From IMG/VR virus record IMGVR_UViG_3300020044_005158, positions 1-63,828 of that record: a stretch of 63,828 bases of DNA; one strand, given 5' to 3'. Numbering within the stretch: the stretch's first letter is position 1; each line of letters begins with the position of its first letter. This document shows positions 5,044-36,045 of this stretch, in pieces. This stretch comes from a virus. Lineage: Duplodnaviria; Caudoviricetes. Made by a program: the position numbers and the translations under genes. Below the pieces are notes generated by a model. The model was not told the origin of the DNA, searched no databases, and saw only the letters and a list, made by a program, of their open reading frames with translations.

Positions 5044-8000
5044 ATGAACGAAAAAGCACTTCAAGACTCGTACAACATATTCAAAGCTCAGGGATACAAT
5101 AAATCTATTGAGGAGTATAAGACGTTATTAAAATCTAACGGAAACGCACTGAATGACTCTTATAAATTATTTAAGTCTAAGGGATATAATAAGTCTATTG
5201 ATGACTATAAAGTATTGATGGGAGTAAGTGGTGATCCTGTAAAAAAAAAAGAACCTACGGCATCAGTTTCTCCATCAGGTCAAAAACCTACTTCATCGGT
5301 TACTCCAGCCAAGAAGGCGCAACCGCAATCGGTATTTTTGCAAGACGCAGATACTGGAGGTAAGCTAGAAATACTTACTGGATATCCACAGAAAGAAGAT
5401 ATAGAATATAACTTTGCTAACGGTCAGTGGAGAAAAAGAAAACCCGGTCAAACATCTTGGTACAACATAACTAACGAGGGATCCATAAGTTCTCTTAATA
5501 AGTTCTTTAATAAAGAAAAGATTCCAGATAATAAAAAAAGTGTAGACCAGCAAGTAAGAGACCTTGAGGATTTAAGAGAGCTATCAGACCAAGAAACAGC
5601 TGATGCATTAGGGTGGTCATTAGAAGACCTTCAAAAAGCAAATAAAGGAACAAAGGTAAACAAGGTGAAAACTACAGGTGCTACTGTAGCTCCTAATATT
5701 ATCGAAGGAAAAGATGCTATATCAGTTCAAGCAAATAGCATAGCTAAGGCAAGAATAGAACTTGGCTCATCTGCAAATCAAGAAAAGATAAACGATAGAG
5801 CTAAATATCACGAAAATATAAATCTTCAGAAATATTTAAAGAACAAAGGGTTTGATGTAGATGTAAATGGAGATATCGAAAGTGATAAAACAAAGTCAGC
5901 TCTAGATAAGTTAAAGGCTATAGAAGAACTTAATGAAATAGAAGATGCAAACAGAAGTAAATTCATATCAAAAATAAATAGCGATATAACATCTGACATG
6001 TTATCTTCTCCTGAAAGTATTGATCAATTGAGATCAGAATTTTCTAAGAATGGATATGTATTTGAATCATTTGGTGGATCTATAGCTGGATTAGGAGTTG
6101 GATCTGGTAGGTATATAAAAGTAAAATATACCTTACCTGATGGTACAGAAACAAGAGAAGAGACATTCGATACATCTGATCCAGAAGCCAGTCGTAATAT
6201 GAGACTATTTATGTCTCAAACATTTATGAGTAAATCTGAAAAGGAGGCTATTATTGGAGGTGATGCACCTACTGACGAAATGGGAAGATTTGAGTATATG
6301 TCTTCTCTAGTCGGAAAAATGGCGGCTAATCCTAGTAAGTACGGAAGAACACTTGTATCTGATGAGTTTATTTCTAATCATATGAAAAGTACTTATCAGT
6401 ACTTGAAAGATGAACAAACAGGAATATCATTAGAATATGATAACTTAAAAAAGAGAATAGATCAATTTAAACTTAATCCTACAGAAGAAGAAAGACAGCT
6501 TATTAATAACAAAGTCCATGAAATATCTGTAAGGGAAATTAAGTTAAATGGACAATACGAAAAAGCCAAAGAAACTGAAAAGAATTTTTCTTCAATATCT
6601 GCAGCTTATGCAACTGAAATGGAGAAAAAGGGGGGATTTTTCACTGGATTAACAGCTCAATTTGCTAAGGGTGTTACTAGTATACCAAAAATGATGTTGA
6701 CCACGTCAGCAGATATACTTCCATATGTAGTAGATGCAGTAGATCCTATCACAAAGAATAGATTAAAAAATGATGGGTATTCAGATTCTGAAATAGCAGA
6801 CTATGCCTCAAAGGAACTAAAAAATACGGTTGTTAAAGAGATAGAGAAAGGAGTAGTAAACATAGGATCATTAGGTCAGACTACTGAAGAGTATTTACAG
6901 TCAGAAGATAGAGGTGTTTTAGAAAACACATTAGGATTTTTAGCTAATAGTATTGGGACTGGATTAAGTGGAGGCGGTAATGGCGCATTAACTAAACTTG
7001 CATTTTTTAGTCAGTCATATAATGGCATGTCAGATCAGATGACAGGACCTGAATTTGATAGGTTAACAGAGACAGAAAAGAAACTAATATCTGTACCTTA
7101 CGCATTGGTTATAGGTGGACTTGAAAGACTTGGATTTAAGTTTACAACGAGTACGAGTAAGAATCCTTTATTAAATAAACTAATAAATAATACTATAGCT
7201 AAGACATTTTCTGGCATACCAAAAGATGCATCAATACAAACAATTAATAGAGCTATATCGGAGAGTTTAACAGCTACTATGGCTCAAGCTGGACTAAGAG
7301 TAGTAGGTGGATCTATAGTAGAGGGAGCAGTAGAAGGCTCACAGCAATTAGCTGAGATATCTATAAAGAATATAGCTAACAGAATAATTGGAGAGGATGA
7401 GGATGGATTTGACTTTTTCAAAGATGTACCAGACATAACAACAGCTGAAGGAATTAAGGAAGCGTTAAAATTAGCGTCTGTAGATGCTGCATATGGCGCA
7501 CTAGGGGGTGCTATTATGTCAACTGGAGAAAATGCTGTCTCATCTATTAAAAATTATGGAATTAAGAAAGAACAAGAAAAAGATTTTTTAACGTTAAGAG
7601 CTACCCTTCTTGATGGTAATCTTAGAGCACTTCAAGATTTAGATATAGAAAGAAAATTATCTTATGGAGAGATCACTCAAGAAGAAGCGGATGAGATGAC
7701 CAACTCTATGAATAATGCTACATCAGCATTAGGAAAAATACCTGAGGGATTATCTACATCAAGAGCAAGAGAGTCTTTTGGTCTTTTGATTGAAAGAGAT
7801 AAATTAGAGCAAGAAGTTAAAGGTAAAGACGAAAACCTAGTTGTAGCTCAGAAGGAAAGAATTAAAGAAATTAATAACGAATTACAAACAATAAGCAAAG
7901 ATGCCGTTCAAGAGCAAGCAGCAGGTGAAGTTTCTGTACAGCCAGAAGCCACAACTAGCGAAGAAGTGGTCCAAGGAAAACCCAAATCAGGACCTGAAGT

Positions 8001-11000
8001 CGTTACCGAAGAAGGTAAAAAAGAAGAAGTAGATAAGAAAAAATCAGATAGAATATCAGAAATACAATCTATTTTAGCTAATGATGATGCTAAATTTGCT
8101 GAAGAAGGTCAAAGACCTTTACTGGCAGAGGCACGAGCTGAGTTAACATCTGAATTAGAAGGATTAAACCAAGAATCAACTACTAAAGCAGCTCCAGTTG
8201 CAGAAGTATTTGAATTTAATGGTAAAAAATACGAACTTACTAATGAGTCTGTAACAGATCTTGAAACAGGTAATCTTGTTCCAATTGAACTAGCTACACA
8301 AATTCGTGAAGAAGGAACTGTCGCAACCGAAGCTAACCAAGAACAGGTAGCAACCTTAAGAGCACAAGAGCAAGTAGAACTAGCTGAGGCTATACCTAAC
8401 ATAGACGAATATAAGGTTGATGGGAAGGTAGCCAAAAGTACTATGCCAGCTGATGTTTTGGCTAAGTATGAAGAGATATACGATAGGTATGACAAGCTAA
8501 TAACTCCTTTGTTAACTACTGCACAACCTATCACATCTAAAAATCAAGTCACTCTAGATAACTTCCAAGAATTAGAGAATCAAGCCGTACAGGAAGGAAA
8601 CGATACAAAGATAAAAACGCTTCGTGCTGCAAGAATGGTTGTAAAATCTCTTCCGGGAGTAAAGGTATTCATCCATAACTCACCTGAGGAGTACCAGCAG
8701 GCGTTAGCAGATGCATCTGGTGATTCCATTGATACTATCAAGTCAGAAGAAGCATCAGAGCGTTCATCCGGACAGTATGTAAATGGTGAGATACACGTTG
8801 ATGGAAGTATTGCAACAGAGCGTACAGTATACCATGAGGCATTCCATGATGCAATCCTAAAATCAGGACTGTCAGTAGAGATGGCTAAAGGGCTTCTTAA
8901 GATTATTTCAGACAAGAAAATCAAGTCTCAACTAGAGGCATTCATTAGTCAGTATGAGTCTAGTGAGCAGAATGAAGAAATGGTTGTTGAGCTTGGAGCT
9001 ATCATGGCTGAAGCAGGGACTGAATTGTCTACTACTAAACTTCAGCAGTTTAAGCAGTTAATAAATAAGTTAGCACAGAAGTTAGGACTTCCTGTAATGC
9101 TTCCAGCGTCAGCGGATCGTCAGCAGGTTGTTGACTTTATTAATACCATGTCGAAAGCAATTCGTACTGGACGTGCTGTTGATCTGAATATAAAAGGAGC
9201 AAAAGACAAGACAGGTATTACTGAAGAAATAAATCCAACTGCACCTGACACTGGTACAGGTGTTGATACATCATCATTAGAGAATAGAAAAAAATCTTTA
9301 ATACAAAACCTTGGGTTAGTAAGACAAAAAGAAATAACTCAAAGATTAAAGACTGGAATAAAATTATCAGATTTAGGAAGAGTAATATCTCACTTAACAT
9401 TCTCAGATAGACTTGTTACTGGAAAAGTTGGAGATAAAGATTATCTTGGAGGTATATTATTTGCAGCTGCAACTAATAGAGTATGGGCATCATTCTCTAA
9501 AGGAAGAGTTAGTTCTATAATAAATGGAATGCCTGTCAATAAGGATGGATATAGATATCTAATGCCAGCATTACTCACTGAACAATCTCACATGTCGAAT
9601 AAGGACATGATGAATACATCTCTTAAATTAGTAGAAGATGCTGTAATAAATGGAGATGTAGATTTTAACTCTGCTAACGACAGAATAAGAAAAGCATTAA
9701 ACAGAAAAGGACTAGAGAAGTATCTTGAAATATATAACAAATCTATTGGTGATAATATAACAGCTAAAAGTGTAAAGAATGCTATAGATGAGGCTATTGT
9801 AAATAGCGATAGTACATTTGAAAATAGAAAAACATTCTTAGAGGCATTACTTGGAAAGGCTGATATAGATCTAACTAAAAGATTTGGGAATCTTCCATCA
9901 TTTTCTGAATTAGCAAATGGACTTGCTGAACCAATAACAGAAGGACATGAATATGGTGATATACTTTTAGTTATAAGAACTAAGGGTAATCTTATTGCTG
10001 TTCAACCAAAAGAAGGAGATGCAGATTACCATCCATCTTATCCTTGGGTCATCAGATCAGTAGATGAAAATGGAGATATTTCTGATGTTGAAACATTAAT
10101 ATTTGATAAATCTTACAATGCTATAAATGTATTTCCTAAGGTAACAAATAAGATTGGTAAAACATTATCATACCAAGATTATGTTAACAAGTATGGAGAT
10201 AAAGCAAAATCAGCATATCTTGGATACATAGGAGGTAGATCAACTATGTCTACATCTTTGACTGAAGAAGTAAATATTGAAGCTGAACAAAAAGAAAAAG
10301 TAGCTGAAGTTTTTAAAGGCAGAAAGAAAAGAATGACTGAGCCAGTTGCTGGAAATAAATTATTCAATGAGCCACTTAGAGACGCGTCAGTTATTGCTAA
10401 AAAGTATTCAGAAAAGTCTGGAATAGAGTATGTTACTGTAGAAAAGATATCAAAGCTAGACGAGTCTAACTCTAAAGAAATTGCTGCTGAATATGATAAG
10501 ATGAAGAACGATCCTACCAATCCAGAGGTTAGGAAAGCATATGATGCAATGATAAAAGAGACTGCTGATCAGTATGAAGCAATACTGGATGGCGGTTATG
10601 TTGTTGAGGTTAATAATAATGAGCCATACTCTAGCTCTGAGGATATGATACAAGACCTTCGTGATAACAAGCGAATGAAAATATTCTCTACTGAATCTGG
10701 ATTTGGGGATGATCCAATTACTGACGAGCAAAGAGCAGAGAATCCATTACTACAAAAAACAAAGTACTCAGATGTAAATGGAATTCCATTACTAGCTAAT
10801 GATTTATTTAGATTTGTACATGACTTCTTTGGTCACGCAAAATTAGGAAATGGATTCGGACCTATTGGAGAGGAGAATGCATGGAGAGTTCATTCTGTTA
10901 TGTATTCAGATTTAGCTAGAAGAGCTATGACATCTGAGACTAGAGGTCAAAATAGTTGGGTTAATTTTAGTGGAGCAAATGACGCTGTATTTAAATTAAG

Positions 11001-14000
11001 AGATAAGGCTAGAGCTCTTCGTAAGGAAGGAAAGATAGATGAGGCAAATGAGTTGATTGGTCAAGTATATGACGAGATGCAGTTTGCTGAACAGAAGGTT
11101 GGACTTATGCCTGAGTGGGTGTCAGAGACTGCACCTCGTAAAAAGCAAAAGTCTGGTGGAAAGAAAGTAACTGCCCAAAAAGTAAATCAGTCGTTTAAGA
11201 ATCCTGTAAAGAAGGTGATTGTGAATGACCGTACTGCCTTAAGAAATCAACTAAGACTTGAGGCTAGGGCTGCTCGTGAGTCACAAATGGACTTAAAGCA
11301 GAAACAACGTGCATTAATTGTGGCTATCAATAAGATGAAGCGAGGTGGACTTATTACGGTAAATCAGGCATCTATACTTGCTAAAAGACTAGCGTTCGTT
11401 AATGTAGACAATCCAATAATGATCGAGAGATTTTTAGGATACGCTGATAAGTTATTTGCAGATGCTGAATATTCAGCTAAACTTAATTCTGCATTTGAGC
11501 TACAAAAAAAGATAAAGAGAGCTATAAAATCTGATAAGCTTCAAGCAAGTGTTGTAGCTACAGCGAAAGCATTTTCTAAATTGAATCCATCATTAGTTGA
11601 GGATATTGATACATACATTGAGAATGCTGAAAAGGTAATGAACGCAGTTAAGTCGTCTCGTGCAAACGTAAAAGATGGTGTAGATTTAGATAATATTATT
11701 AAAGGCAAAAAGGCAGATATTGCTATTGAATTAAAGACTGCAATGGACTTTAATGAGATTGGTGAGTACACAGATAAAGCTATTGAGTTAGAGAATGAGT
11801 ATAGAAAGAATGAACTAATGTCTATCTACAAGGACTTATCTGATGCAAATATTATCACTAAAGAAATGTCTATCGAAGAGATGAAGGAAGTGATTACGTC
11901 AGTTATGAATGAATCTAAGGATAAAATGCCAGCAGAAGAAAAGCTTGCATACATTATGTCTTGGCTTGGAAGTACTGCAAATGTATACCGTCCAATCATT
12001 AAATCAATGCTTAATGGACGAGATCCGTTTACAGGTGATGATGTAGTTCTTTCTGAGAAGCAGGATCAAATAATTCGTAACTTCCTAAAAATAGATGTCA
12101 CTAAGATGGATGTTCGTGAGGCAATGTTTGTAGTTGAGGCTATGGATAATTTCATTACAAATAAAATCACTGATGGACTTGAGACTGTAATAGCTAAATA
12201 TGAAGGAAACTTAGAAGCTAAGAAATTATCTGATTCAGGATTCAAGACTAGATCCATGAATACATTTGGAAATGAAAAGTCTAAGTTAGGTACTGGTAGG
12301 TTATGGGCGCAAGAGATGATGTCATTAAAGACATTGACTGACTTGGTATTTAGAGGTGTAAATAACGCTCAGAAAATAACTAAGGCAATGGGTCTTTCTG
12401 CATACGAGAATGGAGTAGCACTTGCAAATAGATTATGGAACAACAGCATTGATTCATACTATAACGAGTTCAAGAAGACAAAACCGAATGGAGAAAAGTT
12501 TATGTCAGCAAAAAATATATACGAAAGAGGTATGTATGCTGCACTTAAAAGAACTATTCCGGGAGATCAGAAAGTACAAGATGCTGAATTAAAAAGAAAG
12601 ATTAAGCTAATCAACGACAGTATTTCCACATTGATGAAAGGATCTGAAAGAGATCAAGATATTGCAAAGATGTACTCTGAGGTTGCTGAAAAACTTGGAA
12701 TAAACGAGTCTGGAGTTACAATGCTGGATATAGAGTCAAGAGTTGATTCAAACAATATGAAGGCTGTAGACTGGTGGGTTAGTAAATGGGCTGATAACTA
12801 TAGCGAACTAGCTGATGTAAGTCAGAACGTTTACAATACAATCCTTGATAGAGATATGTACTACACACCTGATAAGTTTTCTAGCACAAAGCCAGTAGAG
12901 AAGTCAGTAGAAGAAGTATTTGAATCAGGAGGTGCATTCGGACAGTTTTTAGATTATGAGTACGACAAGAAATCTGGTGTATTAATGCCTTCAGCAAAAC
13001 AATCATCAATGGCTGAAGGAAGATTCTTGGACCTTAATTTCGATATGAATAACTCAAAATCTTTGAAGGCTGCATTGGTTGACATGAAGACGGCTACATC
13101 CATTCGTAAAATCAGCGGATTCTTAAAGTCAAAGGACTGGGAGAAAGTGATGACGGCAAAAGAAGATAGAGATGTATTCAGAAAGAAGATTGATAACTAC
13201 ATACTTCGAAGCAGAAATAAATCAACTGGTGCAATCGATAATGATTACGCACAGGCATTAGATAAGGCTGGTAAGATTTGGGCATCAATGGGAGCTGCTA
13301 GAGCATTAGGTGGATTTACTCAGCCATTAAAGCAAACGATTCCAGTATTAATGAGTACAATCATTAACTCAGGAAGAGTTGATTTTGCTATAGGTAAGGA
13401 TCAGAATGATTGGATTAGTAAAATAGGTAGAGGGATATCAAACAGAGGGCTTGAATCTCAGGCTGGATTTGAGGATGCAAATAGAATGATGGATGATGCA
13501 GCAAATAGTGGTAACGCTGTAAAGATATTGGCTGCAATAGAAAAATCTAATAGGTTTGTTTTAAGAGCAGTTCTTGCGAAGCCTGACGTATTTATAGCTA
13601 GATCATCTTTCATATCTTACTACAAGCAGTATATGGCTAATAATGGGATGTCTGAGGATATTAATTACTCAAAGCCAGAAGATGCAAATCAAGATGCATT
13701 GGATTATGCTCAACGAATGATTGATCGTCAGCAGAACGTATCTGATGGAGATTTAGCTGGTGAATTTATGTCATCTAATAAACCATATAAAAAATTAGCT
13801 AAAAATATATTATTACCATTTGCTTCATTTGTGATTAATCAGAAGTCAAGAATGTTTACTGATTTCGCAACACTTATGGGTAAGGAGGTATCAAGTCAAG
13901 ATAGAGTATTAGCTATTAGATCATTAAGTGGATTAGCCGCTGAAATTGCTGTATTTAACGCTATAGCATTTGGTATAAAGGCAGGTGTAATTGCAATAGC

Positions 14001-14850
14001 TGGAGAAATAGTACCTCCAGCTCCAGAAGATGAAAAAGAAAAAGAAAAAGAATTATGGAAGCAGTGGGGGTATATTATTGGAAACGTAATTGCAAGTATT
14101 ATTTCTCCAGTTCCATTTACAGATAGTTCTGTAATATCATCTTCTGACTGGGTATATAAGCAGGTAAATAAAATTGCCAAAAGCTCTAGTGGTGAGACGA
14201 AAGAGGCTCTTAAGAAGCATAATGAGGAGAGAGAGTTAAATGGTCAGAGACCACTTGTAGGTAGAGAGGCTGATAGATGGATGGAGAATCATCAGGAAGA
14301 AGATCGATTTAAGATTCGTGCGTATACTAATGAAAACATGGCTGGTACGTATACCATTACATATAATAAATTAGTTGAACTTAAGAAATCATATAACCTA
14401 GCATTCAATGGTGAGTACGAGCAAGATATGTATGGTAAGGTCCAGAAGAAGTATATTCTAAAGGAAGATAGAGACGTTCTTAAATACATGTGGATTGGAA
14501 ATGCAATAACTAATATTGCAGGATTCCCGTCAGAGTATAGCTCTGTAAATAGAAGAGTTGAGAATAACGTCAAGAAGAAGAGTGCAATTTCAGAAAAGAA
14601 ATTTGATACATACAATGATGTTGTTAGCCACAAAGGAGGAGAATTAAATAAGGCAGAATTGTTCTTGGTAAAGAACATGGATGGAACTAAGTCTCAAAGT
14701 GGAACTGATCGTGTAATTGAAGAGATCGAGTGGATTAAAGAGAATGGAGGATTTGATAATGAACGTCAGATGGACAAGTACATTGAAATATATCAAAAGG
14801 AGAAGTCAGTTAGTTCGTCTGACATGTATGAGATTAAAAAAATAAAGTAA
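5044..14850 (+). CDS. Giant polyvalent virion/ejection protein (3268 aa) with zincin-like HExxH domain
   Basis: YHEAFH..EEMVVE motif; HDFFGH..GEENAW..SETRGQ domain; PG-binding-like LQKYL..GF..NG..T segment; tandem N-terminal repeat. Confidence 0.75.
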   Translation: MNEKALQDSYNIFKAQGYNKSIEEYKTLLKSNGNALNDSYKLFKSKGYNKSIDDYKVLMGVSGDPVKKKEPTASVSPSGQKPTSSVTPAKKAQPQSVFLQDADTGGKLEILTGYPQKEDIEYNFANGQWRKRKPGQTSWYNITNEGSISSLNKFFNKEKIPDNKKSVDQQVRDLEDLRELSDQETADALGWSLEDLQKANKGTKVNKVKTTGATVAPNIIEGKDAISVQANSIAKARIELGSSANQEKINDRAKYHENINLQKYLKNKGFDVDVNGDIESDKTKSALDKLKAIEELNEIEDANRSKFISKINSDITSDMLSSPESIDQLRSEFSKNGYVFESFGGSIAGLGVGSGRYIKVKYTLPDGTETREETFDTSDPEASRNMRLFMSQTFMSKSEKEAIIGGDAPTDEMGRFEYMSSLVGKMAANPSKYGRTLVSDEFISNHMKSTYQYLKDEQTGISLEYDNLKKRIDQFKLNPTEEERQLINNKVHEISVREIKLNGQYEKAKETEKNFSSISAAYATEMEKKGGFFTGLTAQFAKGVTSIPKMMLTTSADILPYVVDAVDPITKNRLKNDGYSDSEIADYASKELKNTVVKEIEKGVVNIGSLGQTTEEYLQSEDRGVLENTLGFLANSIGTGLSGGGNGALTKLAFFSQSYNGMSDQMTGPEFDRLTETEKKLISVPYALVIGGLERLGFKFTTSTSKNPLLNKLINNTIAKTFSGIPKDASIQTINRAISESLTATMAQAGLRVVGGSIVEGAVEGSQQLAEISIKNIANRIIGEDEDGFDFFKDVPDITTAEGIKEALKLASVDAAYGALGGAIMSTGENAVSSIKNYGIKKEQEKDFLTLRATLLDGNLRALQDLDIERKLSYGEITQEEADEMTNSMNNATSALGKIPEGLSTSRARESFGLLIERDKLEQEVKGKDENLVVAQKERIKEINNELQTISKDAVQEQAAGEVSVQPEATTSEEVVQGKPKSGPEVVTEEGKKEEVDKKKSDRISEIQSILANDDAKFAEEGQRPLLAEARAELTSELEGLNQESTTKAAPVAEVFEFNGKKYELTNESVTDLETGNLVPIELATQIREEGTVATEANQEQVATLRAQEQVELAEAIPNIDEYKVDGKVAKSTMPADVLAKYEEIYDRYDKLITPLLTTAQPITSKNQVTLDNFQELENQAVQEGNDTKIKTLRAARMVVKSLPGVKVFIHNSPEEYQQALADASGDSIDTIKSEEASERSSGQYVNGEIHVDGSIATERTVYHEAFHDAILKSGLSVEMAKGLLKIISDKKIKSQLEAFISQYESSEQNEEMVVELGAIMAEAGTELSTTKLQQFKQLINKLAQKLGLPVMLPASADRQQVVDFINTMSKAIRTGRAVDLNIKGAKDKTGITEEINPTAPDTGTGVDTSSLENRKKSLIQNLGLVRQKEITQRLKTGIKLSDLGRVISHLTFSDRLVTGKVGDKDYLGGILFAAATNRVWASFSKGRVSSIINGMPVNKDGYRYLMPALLTEQSHMSNKDMMNTSLKLVEDAVINGDVDFNSANDRIRKALNRKGLEKYLEIYNKSIGDNITAKSVKNAIDEAIVNSDSTFENRKTFLEALLGKADIDLTKRFGNLPSFSELANGLAEPITEGHEYGDILLVIRTKGNLIAVQPKEGDADYHPSYPWVIRSVDENGDISDVETLIFDKSYNAINVFPKVTNKIGKTLSYQDYVNKYGDKAKSAYLGYIGGRSTMSTSLTEEVNIEAEQKEKVAEVFKGRKKRMTEPVAGNKLFNEPLRDASVIAKKYSEKSGIEYVTVEKISKLDESNSKEIAAEYDKMKNDPTNPEVRKAYDAMIKETADQYEAILDGGYVVEVNNNEPYSSSEDMIQDLRDNKRMKIFSTESGFGDDPITDEQRAENPLLQKTKYSDVNGIPLLANDLFRFVHDFFGHAKLGNGFGPIGEENAWRVHSVMYSDLARRAMTSETRGQNSWVNFSGANDAVFKLRDKARALRKEGKIDEANELIGQVYDEMQFAEQKVGLMPEWVSETAPRKKQKSGGKKVTAQKVNQSFKNPVKKVIVNDRTALRNQLRLEARAARESQMDLKQKQRALIVAINKMKRGGLITVNQASILAKRLAFVNVDNPIMIERFLGYADKLFADAEYSAKLNSAFELQKKIKRAIKSDKLQASVVATAKAFSKLNPSLVEDIDTYIENAEKVMNAVKSSRANVKDGVDLDNIIKGKKADIAIELKTAMDFNEIGEYTDKAIELENEYRKNELMSIYKDLSDANIITKEMSIEEMKEVITSVMNESKDKMPAEEKLAYIMSWLGSTANVYRPIIKSMLNGRDPFTGDDVVLSEKQDQIIRNFLKIDVTKMDVREAMFVVEAMDNFITNKITDGLETVIAKYEGNLEAKKLSDSGFKTRSMNTFGNEKSKLGTGRLWAQEMMSLKTLTDLVFRGVNNAQKITKAMGLSAYENGVALANRLWNNSIDSYYNEFKKTKPNGEKFMSAKNIYERGMYAALKRTIPGDQKVQDAELKRKIKLINDSISTLMKGSERDQDIAKMYSEVAEKLGINESGVTMLDIESRVDSNNMKAVDWWVSKWADNYSELADVSQNVYNTILDRDMYYTPDKFSSTKPVEKSVEEVFESGGAFGQFLDYEYDKKSGVLMPSAKQSSMAEGRFLDLNFDMNNSKSLKAALVDMKTATSIRKISGFLKSKDWEKVMTAKEDRDVFRKKIDNYILRSRNKSTGAIDNDYAQALDKAGKIWASMGAARALGGFTQPLKQTIPVLMSTIINSGRVDFAIGKDQNDWISKIGRGISNRGLESQAGFEDANRMMDDAANSGNAVKILAAIEKSNRFVLRAVLAKPDVFIARSSFISYYKQYMANNGMSEDINYSKPEDANQDALDYAQRMIDRQQNVSDGDLAGEFMSSNKPYKKLAKNILLPFASFVINQKSRMFTDFATLMGKEVSSQDRVLAIRSLSGLAAEIAVFNAIAFGIKAGVIAIAGEIVPPAPEDEKEKEKELWKQWGYIIGNVIASIISPVPFTDSSVISSSDWVYKQVNKIAKSSSGETKEALKKHNEERELNGQRPLVGREADRWMENHQEEDRFKIRAYTNENMAGTYTITYNKLVELKKSYNLAFNGEYEQDMYGKVQKKYILKEDRDVLKYMWIGNAITNIAGFPSEYSSVNRRVENNVKKKSAISEKKFDTYNDVVSHKGGELNKAELFLVKNMDGTKSQSGTDRVIEEIEWIKENGGFDNERQMDKYIEIYQKEKSVSSSDMYEIKKIK
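7901..8032 (+). CDS. Nested small basic protein MPFKSKQQVKFLYSQKPQLAKKW... (43 aa), +1 frame inside the giant gene
   Basis: ATG after A-rich leader, TAG at 8030-8032; resembles the widespread phage MPFKS..Q..L....P..A..W small proteins. Confidence 0.7.
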   Translation: MPFKSKQQVKFLYSQKPQLAKKWSKENPNQDLKSLPKKVKKKK

Positions 14851-32374: not shown

Positions 32375-32683
32375 TTACCATCTGATATAAACATAATAAC
32401 TTGGACTACAAGTCACAATTTTAAATCCCTTTTCTTCAAGGTAAGGTCTCATTTTTGTTTCAACCAATCTTTGCAAGTTACCATCATTAAATAATTCCGC
32501 TACAACTTTGTTGTGTGTATCTTCATTTTGAAAACTACCAATTGATAACTCATTCCGTTTTAAATTCTCTGCAATTCTAACCATTCTCGGAAAAAGTACT
32601 TCGTCATATACTCTATCAAACTTTGGTCTATCAATATCTTTGACTTCAGATATTAAACTTCTTAATTTTTCTAAATCATTCAT
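32375..32683 (-). CDS. Hypothetical early protein
   Basis: Repeated leader motif. Confidence 0.6.
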   Translation of the reverse strand: MNDLEKLRSLISEVKDIDRPKFDRVYDEVLFPRMVRIAENLKRNELSIGSFQNEDTHNKVVAELFNDGNLQRLVETKMRPYLEEKGFKIVTCSPSYYVYIRW

Positions 32684-33112: not shown

Positions 33113-33171
33113 GATTTCTAGGTTTTAAAATTGTTTTTTTTCTTTATGCTATAAATAAGACAAAGAGAGTT

Positions 33172-33348
33172 TTAACTCTCTCTTGCTTTTAAATACTCAG
33201 ATTGCGCTCTCATAGCAATGAGTTTTAGTTTCAATGCATCTATTTTCTCATACATAGATTCACTAATCCACCATTCTTCAGCATCTACTTTGTTTAAAAG
33301 GAATTGCATTAATTCTATTTCTTCATAAGTTAAGGTTATCTTTTTCAT
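33172..33348 (-). CDS. Hypothetical early protein (58 aa, MKKITLTYEE...)
   Basis: Manual translation; repeated leader motif. Confidence 0.55.
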   Translation of the reverse strand: MKKITLTYEEIELMQFLLNKVDAEEWWISESMYEKIDALKLKLIAMRAQSEYLKARES

Positions 33349-33386
33349 AATTTCTAGGTTTTAAAATTGTTACAATTTGATTACTG

Positions 33387-33584
33387 TCATGATTTAATTA
33401 TTTGATTGATTAACTCACTTTTAAATGGTTCTAATAATTCAGTTGATGGAATTATTTTTTCACCTTCAACTAAACGTATTTCAGATAAATTATCTTTACT
33501 CCATAATCCTATTTCATTATTTGAATATCTTAATGGAGTATTGTCTTTTTTGATTACTACAAAATCAGTTGGGAATAATATCAT
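33387..33584 (-). CDS. First early gene, hypothetical
   Basis: Repeated leader motif; directly downstream of the hammerhead. Confidence 0.55.
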   Translation of the reverse strand: MILFPTDFVVIKKDNTPLRYSNNEIGLWSKDNLSEIRLVEGEKIIPSTELLEPFKSELINQIIKS

Positions 33585-33612
33585 AATTTCTAGGTTTTAA
33601 ATATTTACGTTT

Positions 33613-33661
33613 GCTTTTCATCCTTTAGGAATCATCAGTCAGCATACACATGCTGAGAAGC
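33613..33661 (-). ncRNA. Type III hammerhead ribozyme
   Basis: Minus strand GCUU-C-UCAGCA-UGUGUA-UGCUGA-CUGAUGA-UUCC-UAAA-GGAU-GAAAAGC: full core and three stems. Confidence 0.8.
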
Positions 33662-33856
33662 GAGGGAATTGGCTTAGACTTTTCAGCCCCGTTCCCTCAT
33701 TCGGACGTCTTAAATGATTTCTTGTTTCAATGGTATATTGTCGAAAGTATAGAGAAACAATAAGGTCTATACTACCAAGGCTTTCCACCTCTAGTCAAAC
33801 CATGTAAGGAACTATTTTACTGACTATATTTTGTTTGTTGCCTATCTCATCAACCG

Positions 33857-33873
33857 ATATGTGTAAAGAACTT
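33857..33873 (-). promoter_or_regulatory. boxA-like antitermination motif AAGTTCTTTACACATAT
   Basis: Resembles boxA (GyTCTTTaACA) within the early leader. Confidence 0.4.
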
Positions 33874-34062
33874 ATTAATTGTATTCGTATTGTATTCTTG
33901 ACTGAGTTACTCACTACTCATTAAGACTGTGCTTGTACCATGCCTTAACTCTTCGTACTTCTCTCACCTCATGTAGCATACTGATTCATCATCGTAACAT
34001 CTGAAAGGCTTGTCATTTGTAAGCTAAGTAAAAGTGAGAACGTTTTCCCGACTTGCTTGAAA

Positions 34063-34094
34063 CAAATCTACTACAACTGTTTTGATTACACAAG
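34063..34094 (-). promoter_or_regulatory. Early promoter (-7 TAGATTTG, -33 CTTG, 20-nt spacer)
   Basis: Bacteroidota promoter geometry at the head of the leftward arm. Confidence 0.6.
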
Positions 34095-34130
34095 TTATTA
34101 TGTTAAATAGAACGAAAATAATTGCATAAA

Positions 34131-34184
34131 TTCGACGAATGACCTAATTCCTTCGACGAATGATAGGAATTCTTCGACGAATGA
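34131..34184. repeat. Three TTCGACGAATGA direct repeats, 21-bp period
   Basis: Copies start at 34131, 34152 and 34173. Confidence 0.85.
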
Positions 34185-34445
34185 TTAAAACGATTTAACA
34201 TCATTACTTAAGTCATTGAGAATGAATGAATTAACTCCCCTTACGCGTGCGCGTGTATATGTGCAGGATTTAATTAACGGGAGAATGGGGGATTGGTGTG
34301 GCTATTCAAACAGTCAGCAAGTACGAACGCATGCAAAAGTATCAGGCAAGATAACGCCAAATGAATGGATTGAATTGGATCCGGCAGACAGGCAGAAAGA
34401 ATGCATGACAGCATAAACGCTTGGGCATCAGCGCATTAGCAATGA

Positions 34446-34473
34446 CTGTCTTATAATATACATTATGTTAAAT
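34446..34473 (+). other. dif-like XerC/XerD recombination site
   Basis: CTGTCTTATAA-TATACA-TTATGTTAAAT: 11-6-11 layout, perfect XerD arm. Confidence 0.8.
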
Positions 34474-34762
34474 AGAACATGAATTGATGCGTAACGGTAT
34501 GGATGTCAGGCAGTTATACTGTATGACTTAAAGTAATACATCAAGCCTCAACACATGCATAACATAGGCAACATGTAGGTACATGCATCAGCGCATAGCT
34601 AGTGTACGTAAGGCATGCAGACAAAAAGGTAAAAAGTTAGGACGAAAGTCTGAAAACAAGCACCCCCCCATGCCGATTTTGGACGCTTTCCTTTCGCCCG
34701 GGCGCGCGTGAAATGTATATATAACGTAAACTCTCCGCACGTGCAATAACTCAAAAATTCTT

Positions 34763-35072
34763 TCTGACGTCAAATGTTAAAAAATGACGTAAAACTGACG
34801 ATACTGACGAATTACTGACGAAGTGCCCCTTCTGTAACCCTTGATTTTGCTGGATTCCTGACGGTACTGACGATTACTCTCCTATTAAGATTTCTTTAAA
34901 TAAAAAATAAGGTAAATAGTATATATATTATTAGAATATAATAGGGGACCACTTCGTCAGTATCGTCAGAAACTCAGTAAAACTGGGCATCTTGAAAATC
35001 CGTATCGTCAGTTTTTCGAGTTTTACGTCAGTCATTGATACTTTTACGTCAGGAATCGTCATTTATCGTCAG
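34763..35072. repeat. Iteron-like element B: TGACG x7, AT-rich core, CGTCA x7 (candidate replication origin)
   Basis: Same architecture as 29041-29257; core is its reverse complement. Confidence 0.7.
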
Positions 35073-35116
35073 TTTGCGAAAGTGTGATCGGCTCCGCTTC
35101 GTTAGAGATAATTCAT

Positions 35117-35124
35117 TATCTTTG
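35117..35124 (+). promoter_or_regulatory. First rightward -7 box TATCTTTG (TAnnTTTG also at 35310, 36530, 37200, 39618, 39780, 42867, 45414, 52471, 55874, 56482)
   Basis: Recurrent TAnnTTTG just upstream of + strand genes. Confidence 0.7.
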
Positions 35125-35147
35125 CGGTATAATTAAAACATTAGATC

Positions 35148-35303
35148 ATGCAAAAAGCTACAAATAGAGATTACCCACTAGCTCCTACATTCTCAAAAGA
35201 TGACAAGGAGAAGAGAAAGGAGAAGAGAAAGCAAAATAAAATTGAGAGAAGCTCAGGTCTTGAGTACGAGCCGAAGGTACGTAGACGTCACATGAAGGGA
35301 TAA
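35148..35303 (+). CDS. Small basic protein (51 aa, MQKATNRDYPLAPT...)
   Basis: Manual translation; own promoter. Confidence 0.55.
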   Translation: MQKATNRDYPLAPTFSKDDKEKRKEKRKQNKIERSSGLEYEPKVRRRHMKG

Positions 35304-35346
35304 TTTACTTATCTTTGCACCTGTATATACATTAAAAAAATAAATC

Positions 35347-36045
35347 ATGGCAAGACAACTAAATAACAATACTGTAAAGCCTAAAAAAAAGAATGATTTT
35401 GGAGTCATGACTCCTGAAGAAGAGGCAAGATTCAGAAAGGAGTATAACATACCAAAAGACAAGGATATCACGATATCTGAAGGAGACTTGACGAATTATC
35501 GAAAAGGATTAGTTGACGGTAAGTTGGCATACAGCTTAAATGACAAGAAGGTACCAGAGAAACCAAAAAGAGAAGAGATTACAGCAAAGTTACCTACAAA
35601 GAAGTTGGTATCTAAACCTATAGATAAATCAATTCAGAAGAGTTCCACTCCTAAGAAGGAAGCTGTTGAGAAGCCTAAGTTCGAGCCATCTCCTAAGACT
35701 AAGAAGTTAACTAAGGGTAGTGGAAGAACAGGTAATATTGGAACTGCTATAAAGAATGTTGTTGGAAAGCGAGTATTCAAGAAAGAAGAGAAGATGGCTG
35801 GTGCATACAACAGAGCTACAAGTGCATCTGGAACTGGTTCTCAAGCTGGAATGAATAAAGCAGATAGAAGTATAGACCTAAAAGATCAAATTAAAGATCT
35901 TAAGTCAGTAAGAAAGGACGTTAAGAAGAGTACTGGATACGATGTAAAGAAAGACATAAAGGACACCAAGAAGGCTTTAAAGTGGTCTGATCAGGTTGGA
36001 TCTTCAAAAAATAGGTATCTATCTATTAGTGGTAGAAAGAAATAA
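35347..36045 (+). CDS. Lys-rich basic protein
   Basis: Own promoter; low-complexity basic composition. Confidence 0.65.
   Translation: MARQLNNNTVKPKKKNDFGVMTPEEEARFRKEYNIPKDKDITISEGDLTNYRKGLVDGKLAYSLNDKKVPEKPKREEITAKLPTKKLVSKPIDKSIQKSSTPKKEAVEKPKFEPSPKTKKLTKGSGRTGNIGTAIKNVVGKRVFKKEEKMAGAYNRATSASGTGSQAGMNKADRSIDLKDQIKDLKSVRKDVKKSTGYDVKKDIKDTKKALKWSDQVGSSKNRYLSISGRKK

Follow-up and report, generated by a model that had tools for sequence, protein, structure and literature searches.

The minus strand of a tailed-phage genome carries at positions 33661 to 33613 an RNA element which, judged by descent and predicted fold, is a genuine type III hammerhead ribozyme with two uridines in place of the Watson-Crick pair at positions 10.1 and 11.1. 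The assignment is carried by the covariation of three helices around a conserved core in homologues from phages, metagenomes and genome bins of ultra-small bacteria (CPR), of which some possess the same U/U combination and others a G-C pair. As far as can be read from sequence comparison, the ribozyme is part of a leader cassette that behaves as a unit swapped among phages. By analogy with other hammerheads, this member of the clade probably cleaves the leader of the leftward operon and so defines and insulates the 5' end of its first message.

Genome setting of the ribozyme

The window, that is the whole stretch of DNA analysed, is a complete virus record of 63,828 bases with direct terminal repeats. 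The plus strand encodes terminase, portal and virion proteins, the minus strand helicase, primase and exonucleases, and the phage equally encodes a GroEL-like chaperonin and one tRNA-Lys. A 3268-aa ORF on the plus strand (5044-14850) matches only a PHROG without assigned function, through its residues 1812-1977. The divergent gene blocks are separated by a 1.7-kb non-coding region (33585-35346) rich in iterons and inverted repeats. Within this region TGACGA/TCGTCAG iterons at 34764-35075 form inverted arrays that flank an AT-rich core, with arms of 17-39 nt which are up to 100% complementary, and three TTCGACGAATGA copies with a spacing of 21 bp are situated at 34131-34184. The stretch with iterons and TTCGACGAATGA copies between the divergent blocks resembles an operator and origin-of-replication region. 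Of the other Rfam families, those for microRNA precursors and snoRNAs alone matched the intergenic region, all below threshold and as a reflection of its inverted repeats.

The ribozyme heads the leftward block of small ORFs and replication genes and ends 29 nt before the first small ORF. This first leftward ORF of 65 aa (33387-33584, minus strand) has no family match, as is the case for the small ORFs that open the block in general. The initial annotation had placed the element directly upstream of the first early gene; its position at the head of the leftward block holds, while 'early' is what we infer from gene order alone. An overlapping 49-aa ORF was considered as coding and is disfavoured by single-base deletions at 33667, 33691 and 33700 in contigs of other samples. 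A weak candidate for a sigma-70-like promoter, TTGACT and TAGTAT separated by 18 nt, can be seen on the minus strand at 33769-33798; with 11 sigma-70-like sites found in the region against 8.6 +/- 3.1 in shuffles, such sites are not in excess.

Parts, scores and predicted fold of the hammerhead

Read from the minus strand, the element consists of stem III (GCUU/AAGC, 33661-33658 and 33616-33613), nucleotide H17 (C33657) with the predicted cut on its 3' side, stem I (UCAGCA/UGCUGA, 33656-33651 and 33644-33639) with loop I UGUGUA (33650-33645), the core CUGAUGA (33638-33632), U10.1 (33631), a stem II of three base pairs (UCC/GGA, 33630-33628 and 33623-33621) with loop II UAAA (33627-33624), U11.1 (33620) and G12A13A14 (33619-33617), while A33616 pairs with U33658 as A15.1-U16.1. 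All parts that had been listed at first inspection were recovered at these minus-strand positions, including the U/U at 10.1/11.1, where U33631 and U33620 stand in place of the usual G-C and leave the window copy without a Watson-Crick pair. Both the sequence and the alignment to the Rfam model RF00008 (Hammerhead_3) show all consensus core nucleotides of the hammerhead to be present. Equally, and as initially proposed, 72 nt separate the predicted cut between 33657 and 33656 from the start codon, whose A is at 33584.

A search with Rfam hammerhead models had been suggested as a check, and its outcome is divided. RF00008 aligns with all 54 model positions to 33610-33664 of the minus strand, with an E-value of 1.8e-4 when 401 nt are searched against all Rfam families and of 6.8e-6 when this one family is searched against the 63.8-kb genome, but the score of 29.7 bits stays below the gathering score of 48.5 bits. 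In line with this, a scan of the whole window at the gathering threshold reported only the tRNA and no hammerhead. The ribozyme-only covariance model R2 developed here scores the element at 72.8 bits, and neither of the two models applied finds further copies in the window. Taken alone, the RF00008 score is suggestive and no more than that, and across a scan of about 250,000 stretches of DNA it would not decide the matter; the identity as a hammerhead is judged secure because the homologues covary, and not because of the Rfam score.

In a context of 135 nt the hammerhead fold of the window copy has a predicted energy of -27.9 against an optimum of -32.3, that is, it is 4.4 kcal/mol less stable than the optimum. 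Most other members of the family have the hammerhead as their best predicted fold or come within about 2 kcal/mol of that optimum with it.

Covariation in relatives and in the U/U family

An unbiased comparison is offered by the distant relative G003 (GroEL 57% identical), as it was picked up through DNA similarity and not through the motif, with a 76%-identical DNA match that extends exactly over 33582-33723 of the window. Between the two, 24/24 pairs of the hammerhead and of the adjoining hairpin P0 are kept and eight have changed on both sides, against 0-1 pairs when the partners are slid by one to three columns. The compensatory changes concern eight of the 13 hammerhead pairs, namely five of six in stem I, two of three in stem II and one of four in stem III. 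The G003 core, CUGACGA, differs from that of the window solely at the free position N7 (U to C), U10.1 and U11.1 are kept and H17 has changed from C to U; a search with RF00008 leaves the G003 copy unreported even at E up to 10. Furthermore, the stretch recurs in contigs of four other public runs, three from DNA libraries and one from an RNA library, and is little altered within the ribozyme. The differences listed comprise an A to G change in loop I and a U (contigs X1, X3 and X20) or an A (X2) at H17, with G in none; 28 further, unlisted differences may in part fall within the ribozyme as well.

Additional members were sought with a degenerate pattern. Loop I UGUGU and the core were held constant in it together with both mismatched uridines (U10.1 and U11.1) and the opening bases of stem III, whereas variation was allowed in the stems, at H17, in loop II and in the 5' strand of stem III, so that core conservation is not independent in the resulting set, while helices, loop II and H17 are. 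After the pattern matches had been screened with our own covariance models, R1 for hairpin plus ribozyme and R2 for the ribozyme only, true hammerheads remained at one of two loci in IMG/VR (viral_contigs), at six of 22 loci in metagenome contigs, one of them identical to G003, and at three of 11 loci in species-representative genomes. The remaining matches (1, 16 and 8 loci, respectively) were rejected, as they are without stems and occur in the numbers expected by chance. All three genome matches are in CPR bins, two of Ca. Saccharibacteria and one of Ca. Shapirobacteria.

The ten distinct U/U sequences, which derive from phages, metagenomes and the three CPR genome bins, align without gaps and with 130/130 cells paired. 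Compensatory change is seen in nine of the 13 pairs (9-12 of 13 pairs covary across analyses), and the covariation score was reached by none of 500 shuffles. Overall, slid-partner controls gave 0-4 covarying pairs as compared to 8-13 when the partners are those of the hammerhead. All ten U/U members have UGUGUR as loop I and NAAA as loop II, and in most of their G-C sisters the loops are identical or much alike. With loop II left free by the pattern, this offers an indirect hint, and no more, of the tertiary contact between loops I and II that the initial annotation associates with the type III topology.

These sisters, beyond the reach of the pattern, were found by model: L033 has one in addition to its first copy, and the three CPR genomes add another seven, so that at sizes of 0.8-1.0 Mb they possess three, two and five hammerheads. 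At 10.1/11.1 the sister copies in L033 and the CPR genomes carry G-C; several share the loops of the U/U copies and often stem II too. Like the window copy, the canonical sisters score below the Rfam threshold, with 25.7-45.7 bits. Extending the search to 151 sampled genomes of the phylum of the CPR bins gave a model match at E up to 0.001 in 16.

When 35 family members are aligned to the model, 98.6% of the cells are paired, C3, G5, A6, G8, A9, G12, A13 and A14 are invariant (35/35), U4 is kept in 34/35 and U16.1-A15.1 in 31/35. At 10.1/11.1, 23 members have G-C and 12 have U/U, and some of the G-C copies share genomes with U/U copies. H17 is C in 21, A in eight, U in five and G in one, the lone G belonging to a doubtful match of 28.6 bits; well-scoring copies never have G. 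The type III identity proposed in the initial annotation is thereby borne out, with three covarying helices, an invariant core, conserved loops and position 17 confined to C, U and A. As judged from the alignment, the U/U at 10.1/11.1 is derived and has been maintained through continued co-evolution of the helices, which argues that U/U copies are still selected for the ribozyme fold.

In other members of the family a start codon follows 2 to 63 nt downstream of the ribozyme, which fits a position in the 5' untranslated region. The next genes encode ATP synthase epsilon, a family-2 glycosyltransferase, a PNPOx-like protein or small unknown ORFs; from these contexts, the common denominator across members is the 5' untranslated position and no particular gene.

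Several observations were made alongside. In two Ca. Saccharibacteria, G006 (L053/L056) and G008 (L050/L058), with genomes of 0.8-1.0 Mb that contain three and five hammerheads, respectively, the U/U hammerhead comes after the ATP synthase beta-subunit gene and two strong hairpins, with a 278-aa ORF of unknown function on one side and the epsilon-subunit gene on the other. In the sisters at L064:1501-1555 and L060:1501-1555, both on the minus strand, the 15.1-16.1 pair is reversed to U15.1-A16.1 with the rest of the core canonical. Sub-threshold matches to RAGATH-10 RNA (cut-off 41.2 bits) occur a few hundred bases upstream of the hammerheads of L027 (645-710, 36.1 bits) and L033 (2478-2535, 32.3 bits), and in L062 a tRNA follows about 50 nt downstream of the hammerhead.

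A mosaic leader cassette

The ribozyme is embedded in a mosaic leader cassette of about 316 nt (33582-33897, minus strand), as delimited by contig matches and by a breakpoint in L002. L002, the closest relative in IMG/VR with a GroEL 99% identical, parallels the window until about 33897/33898 and beyond about 33897 carries an unrelated leader and a different first gene. RF00008 gave no score in L002 or in four other relatives in the parts of those records examined. The element is thus dispensable, as L002 has another leader and, in these parts, is without the hammerhead. Contigs of other samples match from about 33581/33582, the G of the ATG, to about 33895 with unrelated flanks on both sides, and the homology of the cassette in other phages ends at the ATG of the first ORF (33584-33582). 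Contig X20 keeps only 33581-33700, comprising P0, ribozyme and pre-ATG box, with 264 unlike bases in place of 33701-33897. Exact 30-nt searches of the element gave no match in IMG/VR, where the window's own record may be excluded, and blastn of 33300-35400 against a phage collection gave no match either.

Hairpin P0 (33662-33698, minus strand), apparent from alignment and consensus fold, abuts stem III and has an outer stem of 7 bp (33698-33692 with 33668-33662) and an inner one of 4 bp. P0 is nearly invariant between the window and G003, while the stems of the ribozyme are saturated with change; in contigs X2 and X3 the pair 33696/33664 has changed from G-C to C-G. Rfam contains no match to P0, and a strict P0 pattern found in IMG/VR G003 only. 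Upstream of P0, a conserved block (33699-33723, minus strand) extends to the end of the 76%-identical G003 match at 33723. Two further ideas about this hairpin were tried and rejected, namely an extension of P0 that traps the 5' strand of stem III, since of the last five nucleotides of the 5' cleavage product four are paired in the window, none in G003 and none in most members, and a hairpin that always abuts the ribozyme, since a hairpin within 10 nt is found in 12 of 21 members as compared to 305 of 840 random positions, a weak enrichment.

Downstream, the leader of 28 nt between ribozyme and ATG (33585-33612, minus strand) contains at 33601-33586 the 16-nt box TTTAAAACCTAGAAAT. Exact copies of this box are found on the minus strand at 33586-33601, 33350-33365 and 33114-33129, each ending 1 nt before the start codon of one of the first three leftward ORFs, and a diverged copy precedes the fourth ORF (ATG at 32683); next to the three exact copies, seven matches with up to three mismatches were counted against 1.86 expected. 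The box is present in G003 as well. Since the homology of the cassette in other phages stops precisely at this box, it may mark the translation start and at the same time be a joint for recombination. Taken together, hairpin, ribozyme and pre-ATG box behave in these comparisons as a cassette that is swapped among phages and placed before different first genes.

In another relative, L003 (GroEL 96% identical), the intergenic region contains at 189-235 of the plus strand an ssNA-helicase RNA (RF03070) with 51.9 bits (cut-off 41.5); in the window RF03070 is found neither at the gathering threshold nor, within 33850-35400, at E up to 1.

Host and expression signals

The nearest U/U relatives within genomes are in CPR bins. 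A comparison of the large terminase with 401 sampled CPR genomes gave a match in 1/401, at 27% identity, and this one weak match leaves a CPR host unsupported. Shine-Dalgarno sequences were found before none of the 34 phage genes inspected. TAnnTTTG boxes, a consensus which we take to be the Bacteroidota -7 promoter box, are enriched in the window with 91 copies against 64.5 +/- 8.5 in shuffles, and several TATCTTTG copies lie just upstream of plus-strand genes. The hints on the host hence conflict, with Bacteroidota-style signals on one side and the CPR origin of the nearest ribozyme relatives on the other.

Proposed role of the cleavage and its alternatives

In the mechanism that we consider probable, the ribozyme would be transcribed within the leader of the leftward small-ORF/replication operon, stems I, II and III would form and self-cleavage would take place 3' of C33657. 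Following common hammerhead chemistry, the upstream RNA would end with the P0 hairpin and GCUUC carrying a 2',3'-cyclic phosphate, and the stem I hairpin, with a 5'-OH, would become the start of an mRNA whose ATG follows after 72 nt. The message of the first gene would in this way be uncoupled from the upstream promoter, origin and iteron region and receive a defined, structured 5' end, the cassette acting like a natural insulator of the first cistron. Such a role fits because hairpin, ribozyme and pre-ATG box travel together before different genes. Moreover, the same box stands before the second and third ORFs without any ribozyme; this points to a service of the ribozyme to the transcript end and not to translation initiation as such.

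The U/U at 10.1/11.1 is the main uncertainty about activity and at the same time the most interesting feature of the element. The main rival to constitutive processing is a hammerhead by descent that is attenuated or conditional, dependent on Mg2+, temperature or a protein, and that would thus work as a regulated switch; we consider this possible, at a probability well below that of processing. On this view, a U/U mismatch next to a stem II of three base pairs would slow cleavage, and the retention of U/U in ten well-scoring members while the stems turn over suggests that the mismatch is either tolerated or selected. Perreault et al. raise regulated cleavage for slow phage variants (PMC3088659). 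The contig from the RNA library, X20, is unbroken across the predicted cut site, which means that uncut molecules exist if the contig derives from RNA, contigs as such showing no RNA ends and DNA carry-over being conceivable. These points, together with the gap of 4.4 kcal/mol to the predicted optimum, are the reasons to doubt constitutive fast cleavage, although most other members fold at or close to their optimum. H17 is A or U in nine of ten well-scoring U/U members and C in 20 of 23 G-C members, a bias that is uncorrected for relatedness and might merely mirror it.

An improbable alternative takes as the main product the upstream non-coding leader RNA ending in P0, with the effect on the mRNA being secondary. 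In its favour, the sequence of P0 is far more conserved than the ribozyme stems, its pairing survives the G-C to C-G swap and the X20 match begins at 33700, two bases upstream of the hairpin. Against this stand the lack of a Rfam match for P0, the weak enrichment of stable hairpins near the ribozyme in what are related sequences, and the fact that neither a promoter or start site nor a partner of such an RNA came to light. That the element would be a chance hammerhead-like motif or a DNA-level signal such as an operator, origin or packaging hairpin can hardly be credited, since despite a score below the Rfam cut-off and a neighbourhood of iterons and inverted repeats, three covarying helices, a fixed unpaired core, an H17 that is never G and the low counts of the slid-partner controls form the pattern of an RNA catalyst and not of a DNA site.

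Processing of the leader by a hammerhead stays the preferred reading. A more far-reaching proposition, put forward as speculation and with low confidence, is that U10.1/U11.1 hammerheads may constitute a distinct, selected clade common to phages and CPR chromosomes, with cleavage made conditional by the loss of the G10.1 pair and the properties of a portable and tunable 5'-end-processing module that recombines before different first genes.

Relation to known hammerheads

With type III hammerheads (RF00008, clan CL00010) the element shares the core C3U4G5A6N7G8A9, G12A13A14, A15.1-U16.1 and H17 as well as the three helices with stem III open and closed loops I and II, conserved within the clade. 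It differs in the U/U for the Watson-Crick pair at 10.1/11.1, in a stem II of only 3 bp and in the score of 29.7 instead of at least 48.5 bits. The 10.1/11.1 pair has been described as highly conserved (PMC4209133).

Type III hammerheads are abundant in phages and prophages, where they process transcripts, according to the screen by Perreault (2011; PMC3088659), and matches mispaired at 10.1/11.1 were discarded in that screen. A hammerhead in the leader of a virus's first early ORF is already in print: the same paper reports for the haloviruses HF1/HF2 a hammerhead (HHphage) 13 nt before the first early ORF, in a transcript whose 5' end maps to within 3 nt of the cleavage position (PMC3088659). 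The element described here resembles HHphage in its location in the first-ORF leader of an early polycistronic transcript, tens of nucleotides before the start, and in the proposed role in transcript processing. HHphage, by the same account, has a two-nucleotide insertion in the core and a host living at high salt, whereas the core is canonical here, with the deviation at 10.1/11.1, and the ribozyme sits in a cassette with an invariant upstream hairpin. The biological role of genomic hammerheads in bacteria and phages is still called unresolved in a review (PMC6765202).

Open full-text literature, with supplements such as Perreault Dataset S1 outside its scope, yielded no description of a natural U/U at 10.1/11.1. 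Equally, a full-text literature search judged by title yielded no hammerheads in Saccharibacteria/Patescibacteria, and a conserved U/U clade, a P0 cassette or a sharing between phages and CPR were not found in the openly searchable literature.

Another point of reference comes from synthetic biology, where RiboJ, a man-made 5'-UTR insulator, combines a satellite-RNA hammerhead with a hairpin that follows it. Inserted behind a promoter and ahead of the coding sequence, RiboJ gives the mRNA a constant 5' end irrespective of the upstream sequence, and loop I of its satellite hammerhead also begins with UGUG. The phage cassette has in common with RiboJ a type III hammerhead with an adjacent hairpin; in the phage, the hairpin precedes the ribozyme, and the arrangement is a natural one that phages exchange.

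Significance

A mismatch at 10.1/11.1 that is dropped by standard screens and by the Rfam threshold is kept in at least ten independent sequences with covarying helices. As U/U variants are discarded by screens and yet conserved, databases probably under-count them. The pairs of G-C and U/U sister copies represent a ready-made experiment on the contribution of the base pair at 10.1/11.1. Furthermore, a single ribozyme at the head of an operon, within a cassette of about 316 nt that is absent from the closest relative and present before other genes in other phages, provides a natural test bed that is useful for the question of which role hammerheads have in phages and bacteria.
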